A program made the position numbers and the translations under genes. A stretch of DNA of 64,000 bases, from contig CAVWRJ010000011.1 in the NCBI GenBank assembly GCA_963757335.1, forward strand, positions 71,700 through 135,699, read 5' to 3'. A model generated the notes under the pieces. The model saw only the letters and a list, made by a program, of their open reading frames with translations. It was not told the origin of the DNA and did no database searches. Source of the DNA: an uncultured Acidobacteriota bacterium (GTDB taxonomy: Bacteria > Acidobacteriota > Thermoanaerobaculia > Multivoradales > UBA5704). Shown here one piece after another: positions 1 through 26,600 of the stretch. The number at the start of each line of letters is the position of its first letter. Position 1 is the first letter of the stretch.

Positions 1-120
1 GCTCAAGGCGAGGAGAGCGCCGGTAAGCGTGACCGCCCAGCCCTTGAGCAAAAATGAGTTGCCGGCCATACGATTGACAGTCGCTTGGATGAATTCGAGG
101 TGCTTGAGTTTCTCTTCCAT
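1..120 (-). CDS. partial ORF (N-terminus only; gene runs off window start): MEEKLKHLEFIQATVNRMAGNSFLLKGWAVTLTGALLALS..., hydrophobic segment suggests a membrane protein
   Basis: Reverse-complement translation of 1-120 gives an ATG-initiated open frame with an amphipathic/TM-like N-terminus and no stop before the window edge. Not in the ORF track because truncated. Confidence 0.3.
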   Translation of the reverse strand, partial: MEEKLKHLEFIQATVNRMAGNSFLLKGWAVTLTGALLALS

Positions 121-154
121 GGGGGTAGGTGTTCTTTCGGGTAATACGAGTGCG

Positions 155-436
155 CTAGGCTACGGGAAGCCCTTGCCAAGCGACTCCGTTGGTTAGACTA
201 GTAAGCACGGCAAAGGATCGGCCTGTTGTGGCCGCAGCATTTGCTGCTGCCGTACGGGCGCCGTCCAGGGTCCAGTCCGCAACAGCGCAATATTCCGCCC
301 AGGGAAGATGGTATATCGGGCCATCACCGCTCGCGATGGTCCGAAAATAGCCTACTCGTGCCATGGCTGCATGGAGGTTATCGTAGTCCGCCTCGCTTGC
401 GTAGTGAAGCTCGATTCGTGTGATGAATGTGTTCAT
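155..436 (-). CDS. hypothetical protein (93 aa), last gene of the lexA-DUF2188 operon
   Basis: ORF track; tightly spaced downstream of the DUF2188 gene on the same strand; no recognisable motif. Confidence 0.45.
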   Translation of the reverse strand: MNTFITRIELHYASEADYDNLHAAMARVGYFRTIASGDGPIYHLPWAEYCAVADWTLDGARTAAANAAATTGRSFAVLTSLTNGVAWQGLPVA

Positions 437-440
437 GGCG

Positions 441-674
441 TTAGTGCTTTCCGTCCTTAGGCGGATTCGGATCGTTACCGTAGGAGTCCTTGTCGACGAT
501 CCTGTTATCGCGGCCGTGGATCACTAGTTCCGAATGGTTGGCCTTGGCGAGTGGCCGGGCTGCATCGAGCGCGGCGCCCTGGGTGCGGTGACGACTGGAG
601 GCCCGGGAATCGCCTTCCCCGATTACCGCCCAGCTACCCCCCTTCCGATGCGTGACGTGAATGTTCTTACCCAT
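441..674 (-). CDS. DUF2188 family protein
   Basis: 77-aa protein MGKNIHVTHRKGGSWAVIGEG...ELVIHGRDNRIVDKDSYGNDPNPP matches the characteristic DUF2188 pattern (NIHV..GGWAV...HGRDGRI..RDSYGNDP). Its start overlaps the lexA stop. Confidence 0.75.
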   Translation of the reverse strand: MGKNIHVTHRKGGSWAVIGEGDSRASSRHRTQGAALDAARPLAKANHSELVIHGRDNRIVDKDSYGNDPNPPKDGKH

Positions 675-1347
675 GATCGTCTCCTTTGTCGTTGAGAATT
701 TGTGCGCCTTTCTTTATGACCTTCGTCACGACGCCCTGGATCGAAAAGCCGGGGCCGACGAGGATCGGGCGGTAGTGGGACTGGGAAGATTCCGGCTTCA
801 AGACCCAATAGTCCGGGAGGCGAGCCAGCTTCTTCACGGTCGCCTCGCCATCCACATGGGCGACGACGATTGCTCCGGGATCGGCTACGGTCTGTTGGCG
901 TACTAGGACAAGATCCCCGTCCTCGATCCGCTCCCCGGCAACTACGGCCCGGTCCATAGATTGGCCGTGGACACGGAGGAGGAAGAACTGGCCCGACTTC
1001 GGGGAGAGGTCCTCTACGGGAAGTTGGAGCCAGCCGTCGTAGCGCTGTTCGGCGAGGTCGAGTCCGCCGGCGGTAACGCGACCCAGGACCGGTACCGGGC
1101 GGGTCTCTGGCCCGCCAGAGGGCCGGCGGAGCACCTGGATGCCCCGAGCGCCGGGAGCGCGGCGGATGAAGCCGCCGTCTTCGAGCTCCTGGAGGTAGCG
1201 GAGGACGGTGCGGCTCGAACCAACGCCGAGGGCCTGGCGGAACTCCTCGATGGTCGGCGCTCTGCCATGCTGGATCGCATAGCGCTCCAGGGCGGCGAGG
1301 ATCTGTTCGGGTTGGTAGGTTCGTTGTCTGCCCATACGATTAGCCAT
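667..1347 (-). CDS. lexA: LexA-type transcriptional repressor (S24 peptidase, autocleaving)
   Basis: N-terminal wHTH (ILAALERYAIQHGRAPTIEEFRQALGVGSSRTVLRYLQELEDGGFIRR), catalytic Ser in GQSM and Lys in VKKL typical of LexA/S24. ORF track frame extends to 1374; likely start is MANR (1347) or MGRQ (1335). Confidence 0.85.
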   Translation of the reverse strand: MANRMGRQRTYQPEQILAALERYAIQHGRAPTIEEFRQALGVGSSRTVLRYLQELEDGGFIRRAPGARGIQVLRRPSGGPETRPVPVLGRVTAGGLDLAEQRYDGWLQLPVEDLSPKSGQFFLLRVHGQSMDRAVVAGERIEDGDLVLVRQQTVADPGAIVVAHVDGEATVKKLARLPDYWVLKPESSQSHYRPILVGPGFSIQGVVTKVIKKGAQILNDKGDDHG

Positions 1348-1646
1348 ATGACCATGGATTTGTACCACAGGCATGGTCTATTCTAGAGCACACTTCTCCC
1401 CTCGTCAAGAGACGGGAGCCGTTGTCTGTCTTGGCTGAACCGAGGATCACCTCTCCTCAAAGCATGGAAGGAGAGTCAGAGGAAGACGGTTCTAGCTGCC
1501 GCCTTGACAGCGGGCCTTTCTCCACGAAGTTCGAACCTTTTTGGCTGATACGGAGTCAGAAGAAAAGCTAGGAAAGATACGGCAATTGATGGAGGGTAGT
1601 CAAAGGAGACCAGGAAGTCGGAATCAGGGCAAGGCGGCGTGAGCTG

Positions 1647-1874
1647 CTAGAAGAGCGCCTTGAACTCGTCCTCTGTCATCCCGCTCTGGCGGATGATGGC
1701 TCGCACGGTGCCGCGGGGCAGGTCGCCATGGTGCATGGGAACCACGGTGCGGAGCTTCCGCTCGGGATGGACGAGGAGGAGGTGGCTCGTGCGGTGCTGG
1801 CGGTGTTCGATGAAGCCAGCTTGCTTCAGCGCCTTGACTATTTGCTTCGCGGTGAGGCTCCTGAGGTGCTCCAT
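1647..1874 (-). CDS. hicA: type II toxin-antitoxin system HicA family toxin
   Basis: MEHLRSLTAKQIVKALKQAGF...RQHRTSHLLLVHPERKLRTVVPMHHGDLPRGTVRAIIRQSGM matches the HicA/YcfA signature (GSHH..HP...VP.H..L..GT...I..Q.G). The upstream extension of the ORF-track frame is non-coding-like. Confidence 0.8.
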   Translation of the reverse strand: MEHLRSLTAKQIVKALKQAGFIEHRQHRTSHLLLVHPERKLRTVVPMHHGDLPRGTVRAIIRQSGMTEDEFKALF

Positions 1875-2107
1875 GCTGCCGGGGCTTGGATTTGGACAAA
1901 AGCATCGGCAGAGAGGGTGTCCTCGGGGATGGGCAGGCCGTCGTCGGCCAGGGAAGATAGGTAGAGCTCGATGGCTTCGTGGGCCATCTGGACAGAGTGC
2001 TCGTAGTCGCGGCCCCAGGTAACGCAACCCTGGAGGGCGGGAACGGTCACGGTATATCCCCCTTCGGGCTCGGGGGTAAGATGGATACGATAGGTGAGGG
2101 TGTTCAT
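1838..2107 (-). CDS. hicB: type II toxin-antitoxin system HicB family antitoxin (UPF0150)
   Basis: MNTLTYRIHLTPEPEGGYTVTVPALQGCVTWGRDYEHSVQMAHEAIELYL is classic HicB/UPF0150 N-terminal fold; 3' end overlaps the hicA start. Confidence 0.8.
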   Translation of the reverse strand: MNTLTYRIHLTPEPEGGYTVTVPALQGCVTWGRDYEHSVQMAHEAIELYLSSLADDGLPIPEDTLSADAFVQIQAPAAWSTSGASPRSK

Positions 2108-2473
2108 TGCATTCTTATTCTACCCTTCGGAGATGAAGGGTCAAGGAAGAGACGACTCTTGACGGTTTCGATAGCTTCAGCCGTTCAAAGCGAGGTACCT
2201 GCTCGCACCGCGCCATCAGGCTCGCGGGTACTCTTCAAGGGTCGAAGCCTATCGTGCGCCTGAGACTCGCCGCCCCATCTTCCCTAACAGGCTGCTGAAG
2301 ACTCAGTGCATCTCCATTACTCGATGCCAGATTGTCTCCCCAAGCACCTGCTTGTCGGACTGGCCCGACTCGGACGTGAATGCGAGTTTTCAGCAGCCTG
2401 CGACACCAAGTGTCCGGCGTCGAAAAAAGTAACAACTTATACTCACCGGCGACGCTGGCTTGGCCACCGATTA

Positions 2474-3607
2474 TCAACCTGGCTCGCCAAGAAAGAATAT
2501 CTTCGCCACCTCGCCCAAAGTCTGGTTGCACCTCCATGCATCACTAACTGGCGATGCCCCGGTTTCGAGTCGGCTTCCCGGTGCCAATCTCATTGGAACA
2601 CCACCATAGTCGCTATGAACCTTGTCGAGGCCGAGCTTGTAGATCCCGATGTTGTTAATCGCAGCACCTACGAAGTTCGCATATACACCTGGTCGAGTGT
2701 TCGTCGTCACCTCTGATAGAGGTCGAGGTTCAGAAGCGCCTCTTGCCATATCAGGAGATGAGATCCTCCCTAAAAGCACCAAAGCCGAACGATATTGTCT
2801 TACAAAGATGGATTCTGAAGCAAGTTGCACATTCGGACCTATCAAATTCGTACCTGGATGAACAGCCTTAGAGCCAAAGTCTCCGAACGCTTCATAGGCA
2901 TCAAGGTTAGCCCGAAACTTTTCGAACCGGCTGGCACTGATTAGTTCAAGCATAGATGTAAGAGCGCTGGTAACGTCCTTGGTCGTCATCTTACCGCTAA
3001 TGGAAGCACGCAGGGGGCTTTCATTTTTGACCAACTTACTTCCTTTCACGCCAACAGGCGGTGGAAGCACCCCAAGAGGAGAGCCGAGGTCAACCAGCGA
3101 CGGATTAAGATCAGTAATGCTAGCCCCAATCGGGGAAAAGATCGGTTCTGGCTTGGTCGTGGAGCTGGCTAGCCTAAGCTCAAACCCAACCTCATAGGAC
3201 ATCTTGGATTCGAGCGGAGAGACTGTGGCTCGTACTACCGAACCGTATGAAGGGCTCAGTGGATCAAGGTCTCGCAGTCGCACGTCCCAGCTTCCATCGA
3301 TGGTCCCCTCTGGATTAAATTCCTCACGACCTTCGAGGCAGATTGGGATAGAACTCTTATTGGTATTCTCGTCTCCCAAAGCAAAGAGATAGCGGAACAC
3401 TTGGTTGCTGCGAGGCTGTAGGTGATCCTTTGCACAGATATGCTCCACTCTGCTACCAGATAGTGTCACACCGTACCCGCCAACGGGTTGGCTGGAACGA
3501 TAGACTTCGATTCGATAGTAAGGATCTCCCCTCCTGAGATCAGTTACGTCTAGCTGAGATACGTTGCCATCGTTGCAGACGCTAATACCGACTTGACCAA
3601 GTCCCAT
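2474..3607 (-). CDS. hypothetical protein (377 aa), lower-GC orphan gene inside mobile element
   Basis: Long ORF in a visibly AT-richer island (about 2.3-3.7 kb); no recognisable catalytic motifs; Ser/Gly/Pro-rich. Confidence 0.55.
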   Translation of the reverse strand: MGLGQVGISVCNDGNVSQLDVTDLRRGDPYYRIEVYRSSQPVGGYGVTLSGSRVEHICAKDHLQPRSNQVFRYLFALGDENTNKSSIPICLEGREEFNPEGTIDGSWDVRLRDLDPLSPSYGSVVRATVSPLESKMSYEVGFELRLASSTTKPEPIFSPIGASITDLNPSLVDLGSPLGVLPPPVGVKGSKLVKNESPLRASISGKMTTKDVTSALTSMLELISASRFEKFRANLDAYEAFGDFGSKAVHPGTNLIGPNVQLASESIFVRQYRSALVLLGRISSPDMARGASEPRPLSEVTTNTRPGVYANFVGAAINNIGIYKLGLDKVHSDYGGVPMRLAPGSRLETGASPVSDAWRCNQTLGEVAKIFFLGEPG

Positions 3608-3814
3608 AGTGTCCTCCTTCGCCTAAGCGTTTCTCTGGCAAGGCACGATTGCCAGCCATACGTCATCACATCATTGCAACAAGTGCAACTCTAACATTCC
3701 AATATGAGCATGTGTGCCTGTCGGTTACGCCTGGCAGATTGTCTGACGTATTGAAATAAGAGGACTATGCTCCAACAAGAAAACATAGTGTTAGCATCGC
3801 TTGTTAGTTACCTG

Positions 3815-4825
3815 CTAAGGCGAAAAATCGCGGATCGAAACTGCGAGGTGAGATGGAAGTGGCTCAGGAATAAGGCGCATCTCCTCACCCCGTCCATTCA
3901 CCCACTCGTGCGCCAGGAGGTCCCCGCGGCCAAGTCTTTCCTCGTCTGTGAAGAGAAAGAGGCGCGAGCCGACGCCGAGTGACCGGCACGCCTCGACCAG
4001 GTGCCCCACCCGCTCCTTCGTCGTCGTGACTGTCAAGATCCGGAAGTTCGGGATACCGAGGTGCGTCTTGTGGAGCCCTTGCCGCCAGGTCTCCCGGTAC
4101 GCGAGGAGCTTGCGGAGGAAAGAAGTCTGCTCAAGCCCCCTCCGCGCTACCGGCATCGTACCCCGGTCCGCTTCGAGGAAGAAGAATGCCCGATTCCTGT
4201 TCTCCGGCTGCCCATCGAATCGTAGCCCGAAGACCCGATCCGGCTCCACGCCCAAGCGGTGGGTCTTTTCGTCCCTACGCACATCGACCTGCCAGCGGAA
4301 GAGAAGCTGAAGACGTTGGGTCGTTTCCGGCACCCCGGCGAGCACTTCCTCGGCCTGGATTATCCGCACCCCCTCGCGCCTCCTGCAAGCTACCTCAAGG
4401 GCCACCATGACCTGGGCGACCGCGAGCGTGTGATGGAGGAAGACGCGGGAGAGGTTCCGGTTCTTCGTGTCCCAGCGGACGCCGCCCCGGCTCACCCGGG
4501 CCTCGGGCGCGAGAATCTCCGCGCCCCGGTTTCCGAGCGCATAGACCATGGGCTCCGAGCCCCGGGCATACCAGTCTAGCTGCATCGGCGGGCGATCGAG
4601 GTAGCCATGGTGAAAGAGGAGCTGCAAGCGGCGGAGCGTCGTTTGAGGACTCCCTCCCGCAAGAGCGACGAGATGCGTGGAGCGCAGAAGCCGATGCCGG
4701 TAGACGGCGCGAAGGATATCGATGTCGCGGAGCGTAAGGACGATGCCGCGCACCGGAGCGCGCTTGAAGCGCGGCTGGCGATTCTGGAGGTGAGCCATCG
4801 GATGAGCGTACGCGCCACCCGACAC
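3815..4825 (-). CDS. replication-relaxation family protein (Replic_Relax, N-terminal wHTH)
   Basis: LTLRDIDILRAVYRHRLLRSTHLVALAGGSPQTTLRRLQLLFHHGYLDR matches the Replic_Relax N-terminal pattern (LT.RD..IL..v..hR.l...ql..L......a.rRL..L...GlldR). Sits directly downstream of the HerA/TraD-like ATPase, as in actinomycete-type integrative elements. Confidence 0.7.
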   Translation of the reverse strand: MSGGAYAHPMAHLQNRQPRFKRAPVRGIVLTLRDIDILRAVYRHRLLRSTHLVALAGGSPQTTLRRLQLLFHHGYLDRPPMQLDWYARGSEPMVYALGNRGAEILAPEARVSRGGVRWDTKNRNLSRVFLHHTLAVAQVMVALEVACRRREGVRIIQAEEVLAGVPETTQRLQLLFRWQVDVRRDEKTHRLGVEPDRVFGLRFDGQPENRNRAFFFLEADRGTMPVARRGLEQTSFLRKLLAYRETWRQGLHKTHLGIPNFRILTVTTTKERVGHLVEACRSLGVGSRLFLFTDEERLGRGDLLAHEWVNGRGEEMRLIPEPLPSHLAVSIRDFSP

Positions 4826-4843
4826 TCCAGAAAGGCGGCGGCG

Positions 4844-6124
4844 TCAGCCGCCCATCCATCTCATGATCCTCCCTTCCACCTCCTCCCTCGGCCGGCCATA
4901 CCGCTCCCTTGATTGCCGCATCACGGCCTCCTGCCGTCCCGTACTCATACCCCGGACGGGCGCGAGTGTCGTTCCCCGGAACGGCTCCATCGCCCGGCCA
5001 TGTTCGAGGATCCGCGCATAGATCTCGTGCTTCCCCAAGGAGACAAGGTTCCCCATCTTCACGTCGCCGCCGAGCTCGTCTTCCAAGAGGCGGGCGTCGG
5101 ACTGCCCCACCCGGAAGGCGATGAGGTTGCCGACATTGCCGAATACGCTTTGCCGGATCTCGTCGGTCAGCTGATCCAGGTACTGGTGGGCGAGGACGAG
5201 GGCAAGGCCGTATTTCCGGGCCTCCGCAAGGATCGAGGTCAGGGCCTCGGTCGCGAAGCTTTGGAACTCGTCTATATATAGATAGAAGGGGGTGCGGGGT
5301 GCCGCTGTCGGATTTGCCCGTTGCATTGCCGCCCATTGAAACTGCGAGAGAAGAAGGGCTCCGAGGAGCCGCGAATGGTCTTCGCCCACGACCCCTTTCG
5401 CGAGATCGGCAATCATGATCCGGCTATGGTCCATGAGGAAGCCCGCGTCGAAGCGGTTCCTCGCCTGGCCGAAGACGTTCCGGATCGGCGCATTCGCGAG
5501 GAGCCGCCCGATCTTGTTTTGGATCGGGGCGATGGCTTCGAGGCGGAAGCGGCGCTCGTAGCGCGCGTATTCCTCCCTCCAAAAAGCGCGGACGACTGGG
5601 TCCTTGATCCTGGCCGTTACGCGCTCCCGGAAGGCGTCGTCCGCGAGAAGCCGGGGCAGGGCGAGGATCGTGAGCCCGCCGTGGTCCATGAGTGCCGCGA
5701 GGGCATGCCCCAGGATGTATTCCATCCGGGGTCCCCAGCTTCCGCCCCAGATCCCGCGGAATGCGGAGAGCACGCCGGCTACGACGAGGTGCTCGTGGTC
5801 CCGCGGCACCTTGGGCAAGAGGTTCAGGCCCACGGGATGCGCGAGATCGCCCGGATTGAAGTACAAGACCTCGTTCGTCCGCGAGCGGGGTACGAAGTCC
5901 AGGATCTCCCGGGCGAGGTCGCCGTGCGGATCGAGGAGTCCCACTCCGCGCCCGGCATAGAGGTCCTGGAGGATGAGGTTCCGGAGAAGCGTGCTCTTGC
6001 CGAGGCCGGTTTTCCCCACGATATACAAGTGCTGCGCCCGGTCCTCGGGCGCGAGGAGAACGAGCTTCTCCTCGGGAGAGACCCAGTACGTGCGGGTGCC
6101 GAGCGCAATGGGAGTGTGGTCCAT
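4844..6124 (-). CDS. HerA/FtsK-superfamily (TraD/type IV coupling protein-like) DNA-translocase ATPase
   Basis: Walker A GKTGLGKSTLL, LDPHGDL motif, Walker B FYLYIDEFQ, LALVLAHQYLDQL and NLIAFRVGQSDA motifs; paralogous to the ATPase at 23509-26496. Likely start MDHT (ORF-track frame extends to 6184). Confidence 0.75.
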   Translation of the reverse strand: MDHTPIALGTRTYWVSPEEKLVLLAPEDRAQHLYIVGKTGLGKSTLLRNLILQDLYAGRGVGLLDPHGDLAREILDFVPRSRTNEVLYFNPGDLAHPVGLNLLPKVPRDHEHLVVAGVLSAFRGIWGGSWGPRMEYILGHALAALMDHGGLTILALPRLLADDAFRERVTARIKDPVVRAFWREEYARYERRFRLEAIAPIQNKIGRLLANAPIRNVFGQARNRFDAGFLMDHSRIMIADLAKGVVGEDHSRLLGALLLSQFQWAAMQRANPTAAPRTPFYLYIDEFQSFATEALTSILAEARKYGLALVLAHQYLDQLTDEIRQSVFGNVGNLIAFRVGQSDARLLEDELGGDVKMGNLVSLGKHEIYARILEHGRAMEPFRGTTLAPVRGMSTGRQEAVMRQSRERYGRPREEVEGRIMRWMGG

Positions 6125-6667
6125 GTGAGTGGTAGTTGCGCCCTGCCTCTCTTCCCCTCCCCGTGGGGAGCCAGTCCTCCCCAAGCGGGGAGGAACCGCA
6201 GAGGCCCCTGTCCTGGCGGCCGGCGGTTACGCCCGCATCAAGGAGTTGGTGACCGAGCGGGCGCGGTAAGAGAGGTGGGCGCGGGAGAGTGTGGCGCGTT
6301 TTGACCTCACGGCAAAGGCGGAGAAGTTCGACGCCGTGGCAGTAGTGGCGCCTGCGGCGCCGACCCTTCGTTTGCCAGTCCCCACCGCTGTTGGGCAGGC
6401 CGAATTTCGGCCGGTGGGCCCGACTCGCGCGCTTTGGTCGAAGGGTCCTGCGATAGCGGAAAGACCCGAGACCCGTTAGCCGTCAGGAAAACGCGCGAGT
6501 CGGGCGCAGCCCGGCAGCGGTGGGGAGCCAGTTTATGAAGCCCCGTATGGGGATTCGGCCGTCCGCCTTTGGCGGAGCCCCTACATACCTTGTATGTACC
6601 AGGGTATGTACTTGCGTGAGTGCCGTTTCCTTGAAGGATCACAACAAAGACTTGCATTTTTGTCTTG

Positions 6668-7630
6668 CTACTTAGCGTTCTTCCGCCTTGGGTTTTTTAT
6701 GTGAGGAGTCAATGTGCGGATGTAGTCCTCGACATTAGCGGCGTTTTCCTTGAGCTTGATGGGTGGTGCAATGGGTGCCTCGCTCACCCACTTACTGAAT
6801 TCCGGTATAGAAAGGTCCACCATGGCGCGGAAGGAATCCCGGTACTCACGGTAGGCGGGCAGGCTTAGCCGGTAAAAAATTACAAAAGCTGCAATCCCGA
6901 AGAGTGCGATCTGAAAGGCAAGCTTCGCACTCTCCGCCGGAATGAGCCACACATGCTCTAAGCAGCGGCCCCTAATCACATTGAATAGGAGAACCAAGAA
7001 GGCAACGATAGCGATACCAGCGCCCGCAGCGGAGCTCAAGAGTATTGATTCAGCGATGCTAGATTTCTCATCAACTTCAGCCCGGCTTTCCTCAGAAGCC
7101 AAGAAAATCAGATGGTTCCAGAAAAAAATTGTATCAATTCCGTAGATATTTTTAGGATATAGCTCATAGCTTGCGATGAGATTTCCAAGCCGAGTTGGCC
7201 TCTCCGCCTCAAAAATATAGGTGTCGCCATCGGCTCGGTAGGGAAAATCAGCGAGATAGCTCTGAATGCGTTCTACCTCGGGACTTTTTTGCTTGCCTTG
7301 GTTGTATAGTTCGCGCATTCTCTCCTGACGCAACCTTACTTGCCGAGAGTTCCAAGCCTTAGCTGGAAGAGTAAGCCAAGATAGACGAAAGCCTTCGTAA
7401 ACATAGAAAATAGGCCTCGCTGCGCTTGAGATAAGGAAACCAAACAGGATTACCTCGATCAGGAAAACGACATTCTGATCAAGGTCTATAGGCTTAGTGA
7501 ACGCAGCGACAATAGCGAGAGGCTTGTAGGAGTGAAGACCAACGGCAGCTACTAGGCCAGGCAAGAACATACGCCGCAGTTGCGCACCGCTGAATCCGGC
7601 GGAGGTACTAACTCCTTCACTTTCGGCCAC
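6668..7630 (-). CDS. hypothetical membrane protein (about 4 TM helices: 2 TM, soluble region, 2 TM), lower GC
   Basis: Hydrophobic segments LPGLVAAVGL / VVFLIEVILFGFLISSAA / AGAGIAIVAFLVLLF / LAFQIALFGIAAFVIFY; AT-richer than surroundings; last gene of a 3-gene operon. Confidence 0.55.
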   Translation of the reverse strand: MAESEGVSTSAGFSGAQLRRMFLPGLVAAVGLHSYKPLAIVAAFTKPIDLDQNVVFLIEVILFGFLISSAARPIFYVYEGFRLSWLTLPAKAWNSRQVRLRQERMRELYNQGKQKSPEVERIQSYLADFPYRADGDTYIFEAERPTRLGNLIASYELYPKNIYGIDTIFFWNHLIFLASEESRAEVDEKSSIAESILLSSAAGAGIAIVAFLVLLFNVIRGRCLEHVWLIPAESAKLAFQIALFGIAAFVIFYRLSLPAYREYRDSFRAMVDLSIPEFSKWVSEAPIAPPIKLKENAANVEDYIRTLTPHIKNPRRKNAK

Positions 7631-7976
7631 GGGTTCCCCCCGAAGACCCGGACGTCTTTTTTCCTCTCGTAGGAGTAGATCCTCCAGAAGGCACTGGCCC
7701 CTTAGCTCCTGGAGGTTTGGAAGGAGGTTCCGAAGGTCGCTTCGGGCCTGCGGCAGCTATAGCGGGAGCCCTTAGGGTCTGTCTCTCCCCTAGAGCCTTC
7801 GAAACAGGCTTTCTGGTTCGAGCCGGTACTACGATTTTTTCCACATCGCTTTTGGAAGGAACTGGTGATCGCTTCTCGGTCGTTCTCTTTCTTTTCAATT
7901 TTTTTCTAATAGTGCTTAGGTGATCGCGTCGCTTAGGCGAAGTAGTGTCCGGCGACACTTCCGAGTCGCTAGCCAT
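7617..7976 (-). CDS. hypothetical lysine/arginine-rich low-complexity (histone H1-like, probably disordered) protein
   Basis: 119-aa ORF rich in K/R/P/S/T (KKLKRKRTTEKRSPVPSKSD...GKKTSGSSGGTRGRK); 3' end overlaps the downstream membrane-protein gene by 14 nt; could also be an out-of-frame artefact. Confidence 0.35.
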   Translation of the reverse strand: MASDSEVSPDTTSPKRRDHLSTIRKKLKRKRTTEKRSPVPSKSDVEKIVVPARTRKPVSKALGERQTLRAPAIAAAGPKRPSEPPSKPPGAKGPVPSGGSTPTRGKKTSGSSGGTRGRK

Positions 7977-8260
7977 TAAGTATGCTGAAGGGCTATCACG
8001 GGAATTCCCGTTGCCTTTGAGATCTCGCTGGGACTCCGAAATTTGAGGAGTCCGTACGGGTCGCTCTCCACCTTGCGAAAGAATTTCTCCAAGTTCTTGT
8101 GCACTTTACGCAAATGAGACAAGAGGGCTAGGAACTCGTCCGCGCTAATGGTGCCGGACTGAGTCTGGCCAACTGCTAACTGCGGTCTTCCATCTTCAGG
8201 CATGGTCAAATCCTTTCGACGCTTCGTCGAAATCATAATAATTCCTGCGGGAATGCGCAA
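7976..8260 (-). CDS. hypothetical small protein, first gene of the low-GC 3-gene operon (start may be internal Met at about 8236 or 8203)
   Basis: ORF track; AGGA-type RBS before internal ATGs; stop abuts the start of the next gene. Confidence 0.4.
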   Translation of the reverse strand: MRIPAGIIMISTKRRKDLTMPEDGRPQLAVGQTQSGTISADEFLALLSHLRKVHKNLEKFFRKVESDPYGLLKFRSPSEISKATGIPVIALQHT

Positions 8261-8397
8261 CCATATACGCCCTCTCCAACATGAGGATATTTACATTACG
8301 CACAAGGCAGCCCTCTGCACCGCCTTTTGTCGCTCCTTCTCCCCCGTACTCTGAGATCCGGTCCTTCAAAACCCATTTCAGAGAAAGGAAGAGTGCG

Positions 8398-8706
8398 ATG
8401 CAGATAGTGATACCCCGGTTCCGGGTGGGATGGCTCGTCATGACACCCGCCGCGCTTTTGGCGCTCCTTGAGGCAGAAGAAGATCCAAAGACCTTCGTCG
8501 CCCGCCACCTCGCAGGCGATTGGGGCGATGTCGGCCCCGAGGAGTGGGCGAGGAATGAGTACGCCGCGACCCACGGCGAGCGGATCGTCTCGGTCTTCCA
8601 CACCCGCCACGGCCGTGAGCTCTCCCTCGTGACTGAGGGCAACCGGTACGCCACAACGATGCTCATGCCCGAGCCTGAACCTCTGGAGCGAAAGGAGAAC
8701 CCATGA
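8398..8706 (+). CDS. hypothetical small acidic Trp/Gly-rich protein (conjugative-element leading-region type)
   Basis: MQIVIPRF...MTPAALLALLEAEEDPKTFVARHLAGDWGDVGPEEWARNEYAATHGERIVSVFHTRHGRELSLVTEGNRYATTMLMPE; stop overlaps the next ORF start (ATGA); ORF-track frame opens at 8281. Confidence 0.5.
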   Translation: MQIVIPRFRVGWLVMTPAALLALLEAEEDPKTFVARHLAGDWGDVGPEEWARNEYAATHGERIVSVFHTRHGRELSLVTEGNRYATTMLMPEPEPLERKENP

Positions 8707-8951
8707 AGCCTGCGACCCGCGAAGAAGCGAACCACGAAGCCTCGAAGCTCGACAGTCTCGCGGAGACCTGCGGCCTCTCGGTCACCTCGTTCATCGAGGA
8801 GTATGCCCTCGAAGACGTAGTACCCGGGATCTGCATGAACCCGCACTGCGACTTCACGGCCGAGTACGAGCCCGACCAGCGCGAGGGCTGGTGCGAGGAG
8901 TGCGGGACCGGAAGCGTCCGGAGCGGCATCTCCCTTGCCGGCCTCATCTAG
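8703..8951 (+). CDS. hypothetical zinc-ribbon protein (CxxxxC ... CxxC)
   Basis: 82 aa with CMNPHC and CEEC pairs; translationally coupled to the upstream ORF. Confidence 0.5.
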   Translation: MKPATREEANHEASKLDSLAETCGLSVTSFIEEYALEDVVPGICMNPHCDFTAEYEPDQREGWCEECGTGSVRSGISLAGLI

Positions 8952-9002
8952 GCCCCACCCTCTCCCCCACTTCCAACCCAAGAGACAAAAGGAGGTCCGC
9001 CT

Positions 9003-9902
9003 ATGGCGACCATAGAAGCTCGTGCCGTGGCCCGCGAGAGGGTCACCGCTATCGCCCATGACATCCTCGCCGCCTTCGAGTCCGGGGAGCTGCCCCAGGC
9101 ACTCGCAAAGCTCTTCATCCACCGGAAGATCGAAGTGCCCTCGAAGCACTGGACCTGGACGAATCGCTTGATCGGCATCCGGAAGGGCCACATCTATGCC
9201 GCCGGCTTCAGGCAGTGGCAGGAGATCGGGAGGAAGGTGCGGAAGGGCCAGCACGCCTTCCATATCCTCGCCCCGAAGATCCTGAGGGCAAAACAGGACG
9301 ACGAGGAACGCGGGGTGAAGGAGGGCGACCTCCTCTGCCTCCGGTTCCTCGCAGTCCCCGTCTTCGGCTATCTCCAGACCGAGGGTGAGCCCCTGCCCGG
9401 AGCGGAAGACGAGCCGGAGTTCGTGGGTCAGCTGCCCCTCGTCGAGGTCGCCCGCTCCTGGAACCTCGCAGTCGAGGTCTACTCCCAGCCCGATGCTCCC
9501 GACCGCCTGGGCTTCTTTGCCGCCGGCCGGGGCATAGGGCTCGGGGTCCGGAACCTCCAGACCTGGACGCACGAGCTCGTGCACGCCGCCGACCATCGGC
9601 TCGGGTGCCACCCGCGGCCGGGCCTCGACGCGGAGGTGGTCGCCGAGTTAGGCGGGGCGATCCTCCTCGAATGCCTGGGGGAGACGGTCGAGAGCGACCG
9701 CGGCGGCGCCTATGAGTATCTCCGGCGGCACTGCGAAAAGGAGAAGCGGAACCTCCTCGGGGCCTGTACCGAGCTTCTCGACCGCACCTGTGCCTGCGTC
9801 ACGCTCATCCTCCAGACCGCGGATGCCCTCACGGGAGAAGCAGTCGGGCCGGAGACACCACCTCCGGCCGCGGTGCCTGCCGTGGCCGCACTCTCTGCCT
9901 AA
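9003..9902 (+). CDS. ardC: ArdC-like anti-restriction protein (ssDNA-binding ArdC-N domain plus HExxH zincin-like metallopeptidase domain)
   Basis: N-terminal KHWTWTNRLIGIRKGHIYAAGFRQWQEIGRKVRKGQHAFHI resembles the ArdC/DUF1738 ssDNA-binding domain; C-terminal HELVHAADH is an HExxH metalloprotease motif. Confidence 0.75.
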   Translation: MATIEARAVARERVTAIAHDILAAFESGELPQALAKLFIHRKIEVPSKHWTWTNRLIGIRKGHIYAAGFRQWQEIGRKVRKGQHAFHILAPKILRAKQDDEERGVKEGDLLCLRFLAVPVFGYLQTEGEPLPGAEDEPEFVGQLPLVEVARSWNLAVEVYSQPDAPDRLGFFAAGRGIGLGVRNLQTWTHELVHAADHRLGCHPRPGLDAEVVAELGGAILLECLGETVESDRGGAYEYLRRHCEKEKRNLLGACTELLDRTCACVTLILQTADALTGEAVGPETPPPAAVPAVAALSA

Positions 9903-10045
9903 AGTACCTTTCTCGCATCTCCAGCGAATCACATCTACTCCCCCAGGATCTTTCCTGGGGGTTTTCTTTTGGGAAAGCTCGCTGCCACCTGGGAAGGAAG
10001 CCTTTGCCTCTCTCGATCGGTACCCGAAAAGTGCTCGGTCCTAGG

Positions 10046-12721
10046 CTAGAACGAGAGGCGCACGCCGACCTCGTAGCTTCGGGGCTGCGTGAAGCCAATC
10101 GCGCCGCCCCAGGGTATCTCGCCGCAACCCGAGACGTTCTCGCAGACGCTTGTGACCTGCTCGGTACCGAGTAGATTCAGGACGGTAGCGATAAGCGAGC
10201 TCTTCACCGTGCCGAGCGCGAAGCCTTTGCGAATCTCGATGTTCGCGCTGTACGTGCCACTTCCGTGGAAGCTACCGCGCGGCGCGAGGTACTCGAGGTC
10301 GCCCAACGCCGGCGTCACCTTGCTGTATGGGAAGGGCGAAGAGTAGGTGCTCTGGATGCCGAGACTCCAGTCGTGCGGCAGGCGCACGTAGCCATCGAGG
10401 CGAACGCGGTGCCTCCGGTCGTCCGAGAGGTAGCCGTAGCGGTTCACGAAGAGGGTCGGATAAACGTCGAAGTCGGGGCCAGCGTTCTGGGTGTATTCGA
10501 TGCTGCCGCGCGACGTGGAATAGACGTAGGAGGCGCGGAGGTCGAGCCAGTCCGCAGGGTGGCTCACGAGAGTGAGGAGCACGCCCTCATAGTCGCGCTT
10601 TGCGGCTGGGAGGTTCGCGACCTCGAAGATCGGGCAGTTCGTTCCGTTCGGATCGGGGGTCGGACTCGGGACGTTCTCCGCGCAGGTATCCTCGAAGATG
10701 TTGTTGGTTTTCTTGTGGATGTATGACACCTCGACCGAGGTGCGGTTCCCGAGCTCACGCTCGATGCCCACCGTGTACTCGGTCGTGGTCGTGGGCTTCA
10801 GGCCAGGCTGGATGATCTCCGGAGACGATCCCATCTCGTTATATTCAAAGTATCCCAAGGGATCGCGGTGCAGCGGGTCGCTCGCGAGGTAGCCCGCCGC
10901 GCCGAAAGGGCCACCCGCCCTGCACGCGGCCGCATTCGGGAAGAAGGCCGAGCACGGCAGGTAGGTGAAGACCGGCGCGCTGTTCGTCCGGGTGTAGAAC
11001 GGCAAGGAAAGTCCGTTCGGCGACATGAAGATGCCGTAGCTCCCCCGGAGCGCGGTCTTCGCATCGCCCGTGAGGTCGAGGGCAAAGCCGAGACGGGGCG
11101 CGAGGACATGCTGACGCGCAATCTGAACTCTGGCGTCGTTCCGGAAGCTGACTTCGTCGTAGCGCATGCCGAGCTGGAGCGTGAGGGGCGCGAGCGGCCG
11201 CCAGGCATCCTGCACATAGGCGGAGTCGAGCGTGCCTGCAAAACTCGCGAAGCCGCGCGGCTCCTGGAGCATGAGAAACGCACGTTTGTCGATCGGCCCG
11301 TTGAAATCTTGATATGTCGTGCCGCCCGCAAGGTCGTTTTCCACGCGGAAGCGCAGGTTGCTCCTTCCGGCGCCGAGCTTCCATTCATGGCTCCCGGCGA
11401 GTTCCGCAACGAAACCGCTGAGGCTTGCGTGTACCTCGTCGCGGTCGCGCTGCGAGAACTGGACGTTCGCGTAATTCACCGAGGTGACACCCGTCGCCTG
11501 GTCGGCGATCCCCGGGGTCGCAAGGTCGCCGCTCTGCGGGAATCGGTTTATCGGATCGCGCTTCGCGCCGGCGAGAAGCTCCGCGAGGAGCCCCGGCCCG
11601 AGGAGGCCCGAGACCTCGGCCTGGCGGATCGGGCCGCCCTGCTCTTGGATGGCCGCCGCGGCTGGTTCGACGAATCGGTTGGCGTTGTAGTTACGGACCT
11701 CCGCCGGGTCGGCGGCGTACTTCATGACGGCGTGCCAGCGCGGATCGATTTGCCAGTTCAACTTCGCGAGCTCGTTCCGGCCCCTCGTCGTCTTCGTAAT
11801 CACCGAGCCGGTCGGCGTCGACTTGCTGCTTGCGAGGTCAAGCGCGCCGAAAAACCATAGCCGGTCGCGCAGGATCGGACCGCCAAGAGTCGCGGTCGGC
11901 TTCAGAAACGCTGTTTCGTTCGCGTCGCGATTGAAGTGGGCGCCGTTCTCATTGAATTGGCTCGCGTTGTATCGCGTGTCAAGCGTGCCGGAGAACTCAT
12001 TGCCGCCCGACTTCGTAACGATGTTTATGACACCCCCTGAAGCGTGCCCGAACTCCGCGGCGAAGCCGGCGGTCTCAAAGGAGATCTCGGCGATGGCGTC
12101 GAAATTCACGGTGGCAGAGAAGGTTGCGGTTACGGGGTCCGTGGTCTCCATGCCGTCTATGTAGTAGGCGTTCTCGCCCGCGGTCGAACCGAAGATCCGC
12201 GGATCGCCCGTGCCGTTGTCGGCGCCCGCCGCGCGGCCTACGACCGAGAGGTAGTTACGGCTCTGGGTGCCGACCGAGGTACGGTCGAGGTATTCGCCCG
12301 AGTAGACGCTGCTCATCCCGGCACGTGTGACATCGACGACCGGCGGGCCGGTCGTAACCGTTATCGATTCGGCAAGCCGGCCGAGTGCGAGGGTCGGCAG
12401 GACTTCGGTCGCACGGTCGAGGGCAACCGCGACCGCGGTGAAGTCCTTGGTCTCGAAACCCGCGAGTTCGAAGCGCACGTCGTAGGCGCCGGGAGGGAGG
12501 TGAGGGAAGGAGAAGGTGCCATCGGGTCTTGTCCGGGTCGTCTGCGGGCCGCCAATAAGGGCAGGTGAAGCGATGGCGACGGCCACGCCGGAGAGGGCGC
12601 TTCCCTCCGCGTCCCTCACCGTGCCGATGAGGCGGCCAGTCGTGCCCTGAGCCAAGACCGGGGCTACCGTCTGGAGCGCAAGCGCGGCGGCGAGAGTACC
12701 AAGGAGCAGCCAGGCTTTCAT
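10046..12721 (-). CDS. TonB-dependent outer-membrane receptor with N-terminal carboxypeptidase-regulatory-like domain
   Basis: Signal peptide MKAWLLLGTLAAALALQTVAPVLAQG, then GRLIGTVRDAEGSALSGVAV (CarboxypepD_reg-like), plug/barrel region, C-terminal aromatic (...VRLSF). Confidence 0.85.
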   Translation of the reverse strand: MKAWLLLGTLAAALALQTVAPVLAQGTTGRLIGTVRDAEGSALSGVAVAIASPALIGGPQTTRTRPDGTFSFPHLPPGAYDVRFELAGFETKDFTAVAVALDRATEVLPTLALGRLAESITVTTGPPVVDVTRAGMSSVYSGEYLDRTSVGTQSRNYLSVVGRAAGADNGTGDPRIFGSTAGENAYYIDGMETTDPVTATFSATVNFDAIAEISFETAGFAAEFGHASGGVINIVTKSGGNEFSGTLDTRYNASQFNENGAHFNRDANETAFLKPTATLGGPILRDRLWFFGALDLASSKSTPTGSVITKTTRGRNELAKLNWQIDPRWHAVMKYAADPAEVRNYNANRFVEPAAAAIQEQGGPIRQAEVSGLLGPGLLAELLAGAKRDPINRFPQSGDLATPGIADQATGVTSVNYANVQFSQRDRDEVHASLSGFVAELAGSHEWKLGAGRSNLRFRVENDLAGGTTYQDFNGPIDKRAFLMLQEPRGFASFAGTLDSAYVQDAWRPLAPLTLQLGMRYDEVSFRNDARVQIARQHVLAPRLGFALDLTGDAKTALRGSYGIFMSPNGLSLPFYTRTNSAPVFTYLPCSAFFPNAAACRAGGPFGAAGYLASDPLHRDPLGYFEYNEMGSSPEIIQPGLKPTTTTEYTVGIERELGNRTSVEVSYIHKKTNNIFEDTCAENVPSPTPDPNGTNCPIFEVANLPAAKRDYEGVLLTLVSHPADWLDLRASYVYSTSRGSIEYTQNAGPDFDVYPTLFVNRYGYLSDDRRHRVRLDGYVRLPHDWSLGIQSTYSSPFPYSKVTPALGDLEYLAPRGSFHGSGTYSANIEIRKGFALGTVKSSLIATVLNLLGTEQVTSVCENVSGCGEIPWGGAIGFTQPRSYEVGVRLSF

Positions 12722-12937: not shown

Positions 12938-15697
12938 GTGCATGATTGCCTACAACTCAGGAGGTCTTTGCCCAAGCCGATCTTCAGGGATATATACTTC
13001 TATCCTCATTCTTTGGCGTGTGGCGAGCTTCCGGTGACAGAGCCTCGTGAAACAGAGTCAGTAGGACCCCTCACTGGTCCGCCTCCCGGCGGAAGATGGT
13101 CCCCAGGGCGGCTCGTCGCGGATCGCTACGAGGTCCGGAAGTATCTCGGACGCGGCGGCTTTGCGACTGTCTACCGCGCCTATGACCGCCTCGTGAAGAT
13201 CGAGGTGGCCCTCAAAGTCGTCCACCCGGAGCGGGACCCGGAACGAGCACTCGTCCGGCTTGCCCGGGAAGTGGAGATCGCGCGGCAGAGCCTCGACCCT
13301 CATCTCGTTCGGGTCTTTGATCTCGGGAGAACAAGCGAGGACATCTTCCTCACGATGGAGTTACTCCAGGGCGGGTCACTTCGAGAACGACTCGCCCATG
13401 GGCCGCTTCCGGTTCCTGAGGCCCTCCGTATCGCGGAGGCCGTGCTCCAGGGCCTCGCCGCGCTCCACGCGAGAGGCGCAGTGCATAGGGACGTGACCCC
13501 GGGGAACATCCTATTCTCGGAGACGGGCGAGGTGAAGCTCGCTGACTTTGGGCTTGCGAGGTATCTCGCGCGCGAGGAAACCCAGCTCACCTCCCTCGGC
13601 GCCGTCCTCGGGACCGCCGGCTATCGCTCGCCGGAGCAGGCCCTCGGGCGAGACATTGACCCACGGAGCGACCTCTATGCCCTGGGGGTCGTGCTCTTTG
13701 AGATGCTCGCGGGCCGCCTGCCGCACGAGGCGACCTCCGAGTTCGGGCGGCGACTTTCAGTCCTCGAACGGGCTCCAGATGTACGGAGCTACCGGAAGGA
13801 CGTTCCTCCGTGGGCGGCGAAGATCGTGGCCCGCCTCCTTGAGGTCCGGCCCGCCGATCGCTACCGCACCGCCGAGGAGGTTCTCGGGGACCTAAGGCGA
13901 GGCAGGAGCCCGCGGCGCGTGCGCTTCCGGCGGCGTCTTTTCCGCTCGATCGCGGTCCTCCTCTTTTGCTTGCCACAGGTCGGAGTGCTCGTCACGCGAG
14001 CGCGCCATGCTGCTTTTTCTCATCTTGTCCCCGCTGGCGAGACGGGCGTGAAGGCCGTAAGCGTCTCCGGCGAGACGCTCTGGACGGTCCCCGGAGTAAA
14101 TCCGGAGATCGTGAACCGCGGAGCGCTCGCGCGGATCACGCCCGGCGGCCCCCGCCTCCTCGCGATCGTCCTTTCCCGGGCGGGCGACTGGTCGATGACG
14201 GCCGTTTCGACGCTCTCCTTCCTCGATCCGGACTCCGGCCGGGTCGTGAAGGAGGTAAAGCTTCCGAGCGGTGCGGAGTCCTTCCCGAACGACCCGCCAC
14301 GGTTTTTCGCTTCCTCGGTGAAGGCCGTCGATCTCTTCCACGATGGCGTGGACGAGGTGGTCGTAAATTGCAGCCATGTTCCGGAGGCGCCCTTCTATGC
14401 CGTCCTCTACGCGCCTCGCTACGACCTGGCCCGGATCGTCTTCTACTCCCGCGGCGGACAGGACTTCCAGGGAGCCACGGACCTCGACGGCGACGGCGTC
14501 AAAGAACTCCTCTTTGCGGGGATCAATAACGGGTGGAACTGGGTAAACATCGTCGCGGCGGTGCGGCTCGATCCGCGCTCCTTCACGGAGGGAGACCGGA
14601 TGGCGACTCCCGCCGCGCCGGACACGGTAGCCACGCCCGCGCAGGGGCGCGCGCTCCTCTGGTACGCCGTCGTTCCGCGCGGCCAACTTGAGGAATTCTC
14701 CCGGCTCAGCGTTGACGAGAAGCGGCGGGAGCTCACGGTCCACTACCTCTCGGGGAAGACCTGGGTCTTGGGGTTCGACGGCTTCCCTCCGGATGCCGCG
14801 CACCCGGACAATACCCTGCGCCAAGCCGACCGGCGGGCGGTCTACGATCATCTCTGGGAAGCGGAGCGTCTCCGGCGGGCCGGCATGCTCGACCTCGCGA
14901 TGACCGAAGCGGAAGCCGCGCTCGCATCGGCAAAGCGTGCCCGGGAGACGTGGCTCGGAGAGTACGCCGAGCGGCTCGAAGCAAAGATCCTCACAGCCCA
15001 AGGGAAGACCATAGAGGCCGAGCGCCGCTTTACCTCGCTCGTTCTCCGCGCCGAGGACGCTCCCGAGGTGGCCTATGACGCCGGTGTCGCCTTTCACCTC
15101 CAGGGCGACCTCACCCGGGCCGTCGCCTGGTACGAACGGGGCATCGGCCGCGAGTCCGCGATTGGCGCCGGGAAGAGCAAACACGAATTCCTGAAGGGCG
15201 AAGTCTTGGCACTCGTCGAGGAGAAGCGGTACGAGGAAGCGCTCGCGGCGGTGGCGCGTTTCGGGGCTACCTATCCGTCCGCCGAGGGCCGCATGTGGCT
15301 CTTCCGCGAGTATGTCCGCTGGCGAGCGGGCGAGCGGCCAGAGGCGGACCCTGCCGGAGTGCGGCAAAACTGGACGGACCTCGATCGGTATTGGGCGCTG
15401 GAGTTCGCCTTCGCCGCGGGCGCCAAACCGGAGCCCCTCTTGAAGCAAGTGGATCTCTTCATCGCCGAGCGGCCGGAGACGCAAGCGGAGGCGCTCTCGC
15501 TCCGGGCCGAACTTCTTGCCCGCCTGGGGCGCAGGACGGAGGCCGCAGGAACGGCGCAGTCTGCGTTGGAGCTGGTGCGGGTAGAAAAGCCCAGGAGTAT
15601 CATCGCGCACGGCCATGAAGAACTCCTCGGCGAGCGAGCTCGCCGCCTCCGAATCGAGGGAACAGCTATGACGCCGCGCGGTCATTCCGCCCCCTAA
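12938..15697 (+). CDS. Hanks-type serine/threonine protein kinase with C-terminal beta-propeller/FG-GAP-like and TPR-like regions
   Basis: LGRGGFATVYRA (Gly loop), ALKVVHPE (beta3 Lys), HRDVTPGNILF (catalytic loop, note T in place of Lys), KLADFGLAR (DFG), SPEQ (APE); DLDGDGVKELLFAGINNGW FG-GAP-like; C-terminal helical repeats. Alternative in-frame GTG start at 13034. Confidence 0.85.
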   Translation: MHDCLQLRRSLPKPIFRDIYFYPHSLACGELPVTEPRETESVGPLTGPPPGGRWSPGRLVADRYEVRKYLGRGGFATVYRAYDRLVKIEVALKVVHPERDPERALVRLAREVEIARQSLDPHLVRVFDLGRTSEDIFLTMELLQGGSLRERLAHGPLPVPEALRIAEAVLQGLAALHARGAVHRDVTPGNILFSETGEVKLADFGLARYLAREETQLTSLGAVLGTAGYRSPEQALGRDIDPRSDLYALGVVLFEMLAGRLPHEATSEFGRRLSVLERAPDVRSYRKDVPPWAAKIVARLLEVRPADRYRTAEEVLGDLRRGRSPRRVRFRRRLFRSIAVLLFCLPQVGVLVTRARHAAFSHLVPAGETGVKAVSVSGETLWTVPGVNPEIVNRGALARITPGGPRLLAIVLSRAGDWSMTAVSTLSFLDPDSGRVVKEVKLPSGAESFPNDPPRFFASSVKAVDLFHDGVDEVVVNCSHVPEAPFYAVLYAPRYDLARIVFYSRGGQDFQGATDLDGDGVKELLFAGINNGWNWVNIVAAVRLDPRSFTEGDRMATPAAPDTVATPAQGRALLWYAVVPRGQLEEFSRLSVDEKRRELTVHYLSGKTWVLGFDGFPPDAAHPDNTLRQADRRAVYDHLWEAERLRRAGMLDLAMTEAEAALASAKRARETWLGEYAERLEAKILTAQGKTIEAERRFTSLVLRAEDAPEVAYDAGVAFHLQGDLTRAVAWYERGIGRESAIGAGKSKHEFLKGEVLALVEEKRYEEALAAVARFGATYPSAEGRMWLFREYVRWRAGERPEADPAGVRQNWTDLDRYWALEFAFAAGAKPEPLLKQVDLFIAERPETQAEALSLRAELLARLGRRTEAAGTAQSALELVRVEKPRSIIAHGHEELLGERARRLRIEGTAMTPRGHSAP

Positions 15698-15706
15698 GGA
15701 GTCCCC

Positions 15707-26496: not shown

Positions 26497-26600
26497 TGGC
26501 AAAGGGTGCGGATTCTGCCGCCTTCCCTCCTGCGGCCGCAGTGTCCATCATGGTCGAAGTCCCTTTAGAACTCCACCCTCAAGCACCCAAAGGAGGAAAC

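Follow-up and report, generated by a model that had tools for sequence, protein, structure and literature searches.

What does a solitary AT-rich gene do between a toxin-antitoxin pair and a relaxase-like gene? The question arises in a 64,000-nucleotide (nt) stretch of DNA from an uncultured bacterium of the Thermoanaerobaculia (Acidobacteriota; contig CAVWRJ010000011.1, positions 71,700 to 135,699), hereafter the window, in which an open reading frame (ORF) at 2474..3607 on the minus strand encodes a protein of 377 amino acids (aa). An earlier note on this DNA had called the ORF an orphan and had suggested, from its position, that it is anti-phage or exclusion cargo. We find that this is a genuine gene under purifying selection, that its family is horizontally mobile and has been exchanged between distant phyla and into an archaeon, and that the interval it occupies, from a Replic_Relax gene to hicB, is a variable hotspot of an integrated mobilisable element. 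As to function, we tentatively favour protection against phages or other invading DNA.

A single gene in a variable slot

Four sister elements (loci L017 and, on long contigs, L046, L047 and L048), whose backbone proteins are 73–91% identical to those of the window, delimit the hotspot. Mapped onto the window by tblastx, they share a backbone order: an 82-aa gene (window 8703–8951), a non-coding block (~6395–6625), a coupling ATPase, a Replic_Relax protein and hicB/hicA, with a LexA-like gene straight after Replic_Relax in the place of hicB/hicA in L048. In the window, the TraD/TrwB-type coupling ATPase, similar to type IV coupling proteins (T4CPs), lies at 4844..6184 (minus; Pfam TrwB_AAD_bind, TraG-D_C and AAA_22, NCBIfam TraD models; 81–91% aa identity in sister elements), followed by the Replic_Relax gene at 3815..4825 (minus; PF13814, E 2.9e-24; 73–78% aa identity). 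On the other side of the 377-aa gene are hicB at 1838..2107 (minus; PF15919, HicB_lk_antitox 6.5e-10) and hicA at about 1647–1874 (minus; PF07927, HicA_toxin 3.4e-16), a pair with its own promoter-like site at 2144–2117 according to a promoter scan. The two are 90% and 74% identical in L046, and hicB is 83% identical in L047. Beyond them, a LexA/CI-like S24 repressor at 667..1374 (minus; Peptidase_S24 6e-22, LexA_DNA_bind) is 56% identical to the gene directly after Replic_Relax in L048. The 377-aa ORF thus lies between hicBA and the relaxase-like gene, just as the earlier note had placed it.

Backbone homology ends at about 3860–3960 and restarts at about 2126, and the slot, from the Replic_Relax stop to the hicB start (2108..3814), differs in content among the five elements. 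The window carries 1.7 kb with the 377-aa gene alone. L017 carries its homologue together with a 90-aa ORF and a HEPN_RES_NTD1-RES protein; L046 has a 222-aa ORF and a neprosin-type peptidase; L047 has ORFs of 591, 185 and 327 aa and a 987-aa SMC_N/ABC ATPase with PADLOC matches to Ppl (3.8e-27, partial), mad3, PDC-M49A, GajA and AriA. L048 has nothing before its LexA-like gene, beyond which stand two operons of the cyclic-oligonucleotide-based antiphage signalling system (CBASS), with an effector matched at E 1.6e-140 in PADLOC and with cyclase (CD-NTase), E2, SAVED-HNH and patatin components. Such differing content between conserved backbone genes marks a variable cargo region that carries known anti-phage systems in relatives. 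The comparison of this slot across related elements, which the earlier note had proposed, therefore bears out a cargo position with defence-type cargo present. It leaves the function of the 377-aa gene itself unaddressed.

The gene is shared only by the window and L017. DNA homology between these two covers the backbone (6610–3861, 78%) and the ORF (3631–2483, 82%); none was found in the intergenic spacers or downstream of the stop codon of the 377-aa gene. The L017 backbone is no closer to the window than those of L046–L048, which indicates that cargo turns over on the same timescale as the backbone diverges. The Replic_Relax protein of the window has more than 1,782 homologues; over 120 clusters share 71% identity or more with it, and several of these are labelled Thermoanaerobaculia. 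Only about three clusters are more than 80% identical to the 377-aa protein, so few such elements carry it.

The carrier is integrated in a Thermoanaerobaculia (Acidobacteriota) chromosome, on a 299-kb contig; the UvrC encoded there shares 88–89% identity with proteins that bear the Thermoanaerobaculia label. Its predicted backbone comprises the coupling ATPase, Replic_Relax, HicBA, the LexA-like repressor, an ArdC-like protein, a second T4CP-like ATPase and a large serine recombinase. With its Replic_Relax protein, coupling-type ATPases, large serine recombinase and toxin-antitoxin pair, it resembles Replic_Relax (PF13814) integrative mobilisable elements; the likeness concerns the carrier, and the 377-aa gene is absent from most such elements. 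A literature search on Replic_Relax found nothing relevant to this element type. A match of the coupling ATPase at 4844..6184 to the PADLOC model mad8 (mads_8, E 9e-20) we take for generic FtsK/HerA/TraD ATPase similarity and not for a sign of a MADS defence system.

The composition of the slot sets it apart. GC content is 0.516 over 2300–3700 (0.516 for the slot, 0.512 for the ORF) against 0.655 for the window, and a 300-nt sliding profile falls from 0.58–0.69 to 0.48–0.55 over about 2250–3900. Just 1.6% of 1401-bp windows have a GC content this low or lower, and they form only two islands (1951–4202 and 6301–8602). A low-GC island had been claimed here, and these counts agree with it. The accompanying figure of about 68% GC for the flanks fits the chromosome beyond 29 kb (0.689 over 29–64 kb) and not the immediate flanks, which stand at 0.617 and 0.656.

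The 377-aa gene, annotated from the ORF list, its homologues and the ratio of nonsynonymous (dN) to synonymous (dS) substitution rates (omega), has its own expression signals. A Shine-Dalgarno sequence, AAGGAGGA (3619–3612, minus), ends 4 nt upstream of the ATG at 3607–3605. Just upstream of it, direct reading reveals a perfect 7-bp inverted repeat, CTGGCAA-N7-TTGCCAG (3635..3655, minus), a candidate operator or hairpin of the 5' untranslated region; it is not kept in L017, whose homology begins ~24 nt upstream of the ATG. On the 3' side, a short GC hairpin at about 2402–2421 follows a six-T run 29 nt downstream of the stop codon. A repeat search found a long hairpin at 2288..2400 (minus; 17-nt arms, 94% complementary, 79-nt interior), 75–185 nt downstream of the stop, with an RNA folding energy of -84.5 kcal/mol (z = -3.15); its region is without homology in L017. 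These hairpins possibly form the 3' end of the transcript or a boundary structure.

Selection has preserved the reading frame. The closest relative, that of L017, is 86% identical in a gap-free alignment, with dN 0.082, dS 0.92 and omega 0.087. The C-terminal domain has the lowest omega (0.034), followed by the N-terminal domain (0.087) and residues 161–232 (0.24). Backbone genes compared between the same two elements give omega values of 0.14–0.17 at dS 0.73–0.98, and the backbone as a whole ranges over 0.14–0.22. With lower omega at similar dS, the 377-aa gene has been more tightly constrained than the element machinery and has diverged for about equally long.

An isolated family that travels alone

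The orphan label does not hold. Among 5.8 billion protein clusters searched, 117 are homologues at E ≤ 1e-36 (best 1e-212), 38–86% identical and mostly full length (362–394 aa), all annotated as hypothetical protein. They are scattered over at least nine bacterial phyla and one haloarchaeon, with named hosts that include Chloroflexota, Chitinophaga/Chitinophagaceae, Shouchella, Brevibacillus, Citrobacter braakii, Nitrosomonas, Phycisphaerales, Nitrospiraceae, a 615-kb Mycolicibacterium megaplasmid and the haloarchaeon Natrarchaeobius. At 14 of 15 homologue loci the gene is no richer in GC than its flanks. Several copies are truncated: 164-aa forms occur in several Shouchella clausii strains (P0182, P0185, P0188), and C-terminal fragments lie at 4859–5146 of L016 (Nitrospiraceae) and 2955–3251 of L045 (a metagenome contig), indicating recurrent inactivation. 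No copy was present in 5,426 complete E. coli genomes.

Searches for described relatives yielded only the family's own members. The earlier note had seen no recognisable motifs, and indeed there was no significant match in Pfam-A, NCBIfam, PADLOC or PHROGs; the best sub-threshold family matches were Phage_blade (E 0.06, scoring 13.8 bits where 27 are required) and phrog_1976 (E 0.053). A Pfam scan of 50 family members found no recurring family, and a sequence profile search of PDB gave nothing significant (best E 0.088). All 71 matches of a HMMER profile search of 1.84 billion representatives were family members or fragments. Weak matches to a few long proteins (P0170, P0173) were discarded as tetratricopeptide-repeat (TPR) proteins that share a chance 'YERLGD' string. 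Together, the profile, family and structure searches indicate a small and isolated family. It was not found in 50,697 phage records (INPHARED, tblastn) or IMG/VR, and with no PHROG match either we rejected a phage structural or lysis gene.

The protein is predicted to be soluble and cytoplasmic, with two domains. Its isoelectric point is 6.2, a top 19-residue hydropathy of 0.93 indicates no transmembrane segment, and reading of the sequence found no signal-peptide-like N-terminus. An AlphaFold2 model built on a 50-sequence alignment is confident (mean predicted local distance difference test score 87.6, predicted template-modelling (TM) score 0.90) and consists of an N-terminal beta-meander of about twelve strands (residues 3–204) and a C-terminal bundle of about ten helices (residues 209–373). 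Structural searches with this model were not significant against 350,542 PDB chains (Foldseek, best E 0.028, TM 0.12) or BFVD (best E 0.058). The best structural matches were the Bacteroidales proteins BF3112 (PDB 3msw) and two DUF3836 proteins (4r03, 4r8o), at 5–15% identity over the N-terminal third only. Their scores are in the range of generic beta-sheet matches (porins, Rhs shells, OspA) and so provide no evidence of homology, and their own functions are uncharacterised. The conserved C-terminal domain had no structural match.

Conservation is concentrated in that C-terminal domain. Mean identity to the 377-aa protein is 51% over residues 1–160, 27% over 161–232 and 62% over 233–373, with a hypervariable middle segment (~176–230) in which residues ~181–220 vary in length and are nearly unalignable. 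The alignment of 50 homologues has 30 invariant columns and ~65 more conserved at ≥ 90%. Two motifs stand out in the C-terminal domain, GDFxxKxxHPGTNLxGP and LGLDKVHSDYGG(I/V)PMxLAPGSRLE. Polar residues that are invariant or nearly so occupy its loops (D243, K247, H250, N254, Y272, R273, Y309, D328, K329, H331, S332, D333, Y334, S345 and E348), a pattern that resembles an active site.

The gene travels alone, without a conserved partner gene or RNA. All-against-all ORF comparison over 17 and then 38 non-redundant homologue loci found no neighbour family common across lineages, out-of-frame shadows of the gene aside, except an AlkZ-like gene in four loci. The 900-nt flanks shared nothing by blastn or tblastx and no small ORF, except between the window and L017, Rfam gave nothing at E ≤ 1 in positions 1–10,000 of the window, and a repeat search found no conserved element. 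As neither a neighbouring gene or small ORF nor any flanking DNA is conserved across the 38 loci, we rejected a toxin-antitoxin identity; the adjoining hicBA belongs to the element backbone and is present in sister elements that lack the 377-aa gene.

The family tends toward the edges of mobile elements. A homologue follows prophage holin/lysin genes and precedes IS3 in Brevibacillus (L001), and others lie beside a Mu-like prophage end (L008), between a caspase-like peptidase and a Tn3 transposase (L009), before an integrase fragment in Citrobacter (L006), after a tyrosine integrase in Nitrosomonas (L012) and between an integrase and a TrwC relaxase (L037). The L017 copy adjoins a serine recombinase as well as the RES protein. 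Further homologues stand before AbiGi in Chitinophaga (L010), before a GH25 lysozyme (L014) and, in Chloroflexota (L018–20), beside a Bub-type ubiquitin-like system and a helix-turn-helix (HTH-M78) gene. Among 106 further neighbouring ORFs, mobile-element genes include IstB, integrases, TrwC, a type IV secretion system coupling protein and DUF2924, and defence matches comprise AbiGi, DrmD twice, viperin-like, PDC-S68, PDC-S53 and PDC-M16A. In Shouchella (L003–5, L011) the homologue has a fixed locus between ABC transporters and a gene of the major facilitator superfamily (MFS). An IS605 remnant and an AimR gene lie close by. Neither finding that the earlier note had named as a refutation turned up: the protein showed no homology to a housekeeping enzyme, and the Shouchella locus is the sole stable one on a chromosome.

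What the protein may do

We propose that the 377-aa gene is a single-gene cargo cassette whose stand-alone product protects the host or the element from phages or other invading DNA. A catalytic effector site would be formed by the invariant polar residues of the C-terminal helical domain, its chemistry perhaps that of a nuclease, a nucleotide hydrolase or another enzyme, and the N-terminal beta-sheet domain with the hypervariable segment ~176–230 would provide target recognition or regulation. Protection with this division of labour is the most likely candidate, at a probability of about 0.4.

Single-gene defence systems, as catalogued in PADLOC-DB/DefenseFinder, are the closest known parallel. 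Defence hotspots of prophages, satellites and integrative and conjugative elements carry single-gene anti-phage or abortive-infection systems as cargo. Like these, the 377-aa gene is autonomous, has its own expression signals, lies in a variable slot between conserved backbone genes, has a GC content below that of its host, is patchy across phyla and is frequently truncated or lost. Its neighbours include HicBA, a RES protein, AbiGi, a Bub-type system and CBASS. Unlike them, it matches no PADLOC model or known effector structure, and defence-gene enrichment at its other loci, from raw counts, is weak. Within the sister elements, the closest parallels are the L047 ATPase, in the same backbone-bounded interval, and the L048 CBASS, just downstream of it; these are multi-domain or multi-gene with recognisable defence domains, whereas the 377-aa gene encodes a single protein without any.

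Several observations weigh against a protective role. None of the 5,027 models of PADLOC-DB v2.0.0 matched the protein at E ≤ 0.1, its model matched no known effector fold in PDB or BFVD, and a literature search by family accession numbers returned no papers. Only ~7 of the 106 neighbouring ORFs (a raw count) match genuine defence models, and many of the others are housekeeping or transport genes. The CBASS operons of L048 lie after the LexA-like gene, outside the identical interval, and in Shouchella the locus stays fixed in different strains and in two species. The hypervariable segment also gives no sign of positive selection: its omega of 0.24 reflects relaxed constraint and is not above 1. 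Of the role once proposed from position, then, the variable, backbone-bounded slot stands, and the anti-phage or exclusion part finds no PADLOC match and meets mixed neighbourhoods. The 377-aa gene is one among many uncharacterised hotspot genes, and the data show no unusual mechanism.

The main alternative, which we consider unlikely, is an accessory enzyme for tolerance of DNA damage or genotoxins. Its substrate would be damaged or modified DNA, or else a small molecule that reacts with DNA, and where the gene of an AlkZ/YcaQ-type DNA glycosylase adjoins, the two proteins would work together. In 4 of 38 loci (L035 1973–2443, L036 5613–6905, L038 1218–1499, L045 3346–3750) the gene directly downstream of the homologue is AlkZ-like (PF06224, E 3e-52 for a full-length copy), at spacings from a 31-nt overlap to a gap of about 105 nt, and AlkZ-like is the commonest Pfam family among the 106 neighbours. 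Across these loci the homologues of the 377-aa protein are 54–63% identical to one another and the AlkZ-like proteins only 25–42%. The deep divergence of both genes implies that the adjacency is ancient or has arisen repeatedly, and it appears too deep for trivial synteny. The invariant His/Asp/Glu/Lys cluster is likewise compatible with a metal-dependent hydrolase. Yet the AlkZ-like neighbour is absent from 34 of the 38 loci, including the window and its closest relative, and all four loci that have it are short metagenomic contigs of one subclade. The two genes are co-directional in one locus and convergent in the other three, where their tail-to-tail arrangement means that they are not co-transcribed. 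The LexA-like gene of the window belongs to the element backbone and is not a partner of the 377-aa gene.

A function that serves the element itself is equally improbable. The protein could act in anti-defence (anti-restriction-like), in entry exclusion, or, jointly with Replic_Relax and the coupling ATPase, as an accessory of transfer or establishment. Three loci (the window, L017 and a 3.4-kb contig) have the gene directly downstream of the T4CP and Replic_Relax genes on the same strand, and its dS of 0.92 against L017, within the backbone range of 0.73–0.98, indicates that it has been travelling with them for a while. The carrier also has an ArdC-like gene. Against such a function, more than 120 related Replic_Relax clusters face about three close clusters of the 377-aa protein, three of the four sister elements (L046–L048) lack the gene, and the other 35 loci have no Replic_Relax or T4CP neighbour. 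There is no consistent co-occurrence with Replic_Relax or T4CP, which tells against membership of the relaxosome or a T4CP-accessory role. Many copies occupy non-conjugative settings (prophage ends, Tn3, plain chromosome), and a soluble protein without a transmembrane segment argues against a classical membrane exclusion protein.

Still less probable is niche-adaptive cargo outside nucleic-acid conflict, for instance an enzyme for small-molecule modification or detoxification, at times paired with an efflux transporter. In Shouchella (65-nt gap) and in the haloarchaeon, the homologue has a co-directional MFS_3 transporter gene right beside it, and MFS genes lie near it in Nitrosomonas and on the Mycolicibacterium megaplasmid, there amid metal and mercury resistance genes; the stable locus within Shouchella also fits. 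However, at 23% identity (E 0.02) the Shouchella and haloarchaeal MFS proteins are no orthologues, and with MFS genes so common their pairing with the homologue could plausibly be due to chance. The structural searches detected no fold known from enzymes or from small-molecule binding, and conflict genes typically show such a spread over phyla and edges of mobile elements. The probability that remains falls to functions outside these readings.

That the ORF arose by chance or is a decaying remnant in AT-rich junk DNA, as its low-GC, intergenic-like composition and missing database annotation might suggest, is refuted by its strong Shine-Dalgarno sequence, full-length homologues across phyla, dN/dS of 0.087 at dS 0.92, 30 invariant alignment columns and confident, compact predicted structure.

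Should the favoured protective role be right, the 377-aa gene would add a compact single-gene system of ~1.1 kb whose fold, and presumably chemistry, would be new, active across Acidobacteriota, Bacillota, Pseudomonadota and Halobacteria. It is possible, if doubtful, that it is the founding member of a structurally novel single-protein family of immunity or nucleic-acid conflict common to bacteria and archaea, with a catalytic helical domain and a beta-sheet sensor unrelated to any described defence effector. Homologues in Citrobacter, Shouchella and Brevibacillus make the family directly testable in E. coli and B. subtilis. If the gene is ordinary accessory cargo, it is still a well-delimited example of hotspot turnover, of modest interest. 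Whatever the function, the interval from Replic_Relax to hicB is a clean hotspot in a very abundant acidobacterial element family (>1,700 related Replic_Relax proteins) and could be mined systematically for new cargo.

Other features of the element

The non-coding block upstream of the T4CP-like gene (window 6395–6625, minus, ~230 nt) is 80–93% identical in the five elements, a level above that of the flanking genes. It lies at 5185–5400 in L046, 5186–5404 in L047, ~7050–7290 in L017 and ~5190–5440 in L048. Its predicted fold is a multi-hairpin structure of 92 pairs at -121 kcal/mol, seven of which show compensatory double changes among the five sequences, for example GACTCGCGCG/CGCGCGAGTC versus GACCCGCGTG/CCCGCGGGTC versus GACTGGCGTG/CACGCCAGTC. 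No Rfam family matched the block, which is a candidate origin of transfer (oriT), or a structured leader or noncoding RNA of the element family.

The sole other island of equally low GC in the window (6650–8280, 0.46–0.52) lies between two conserved backbone blocks and holds minus-strand ORFs at 6668–7630, 7617–7976 and 7976–8260. It encodes a 320-aa, multi-transmembrane-looking protein with no match in Pfam, PADLOC, NCBIfam or PHROGs, which is 64% identical over 192 aa to the product of the 327-aa slot gene of L047 (10604–11587). This looks like another mobile cargo gene, one that moves between slots.

Further into the element, island genes at 9003–9902, 10046–12721, 12938–16630 and 17792–22726 encode an ArdC-N-like protein, a CarboxypepD_reg/TonB-type outer-membrane protein, a Ser/Thr kinase with TPR repeats followed by an FHA protein, and a 1,644-aa surface-repeat protein (BACON, BNR). 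Since L046 and L047 also have a Pkinase-TPR gene on this side of the backbone, such elements may carry the kinase recurrently. A 995-aa T4CP/TrwB-like ATPase and then a 619-aa large serine recombinase occupy 23509–28355, and GC steps from about 0.62 to 0.70–0.75 at about 29 kb. This is probably one end of the element, which would then cover at least 1–28.4 kb and continue past the left edge of the window.

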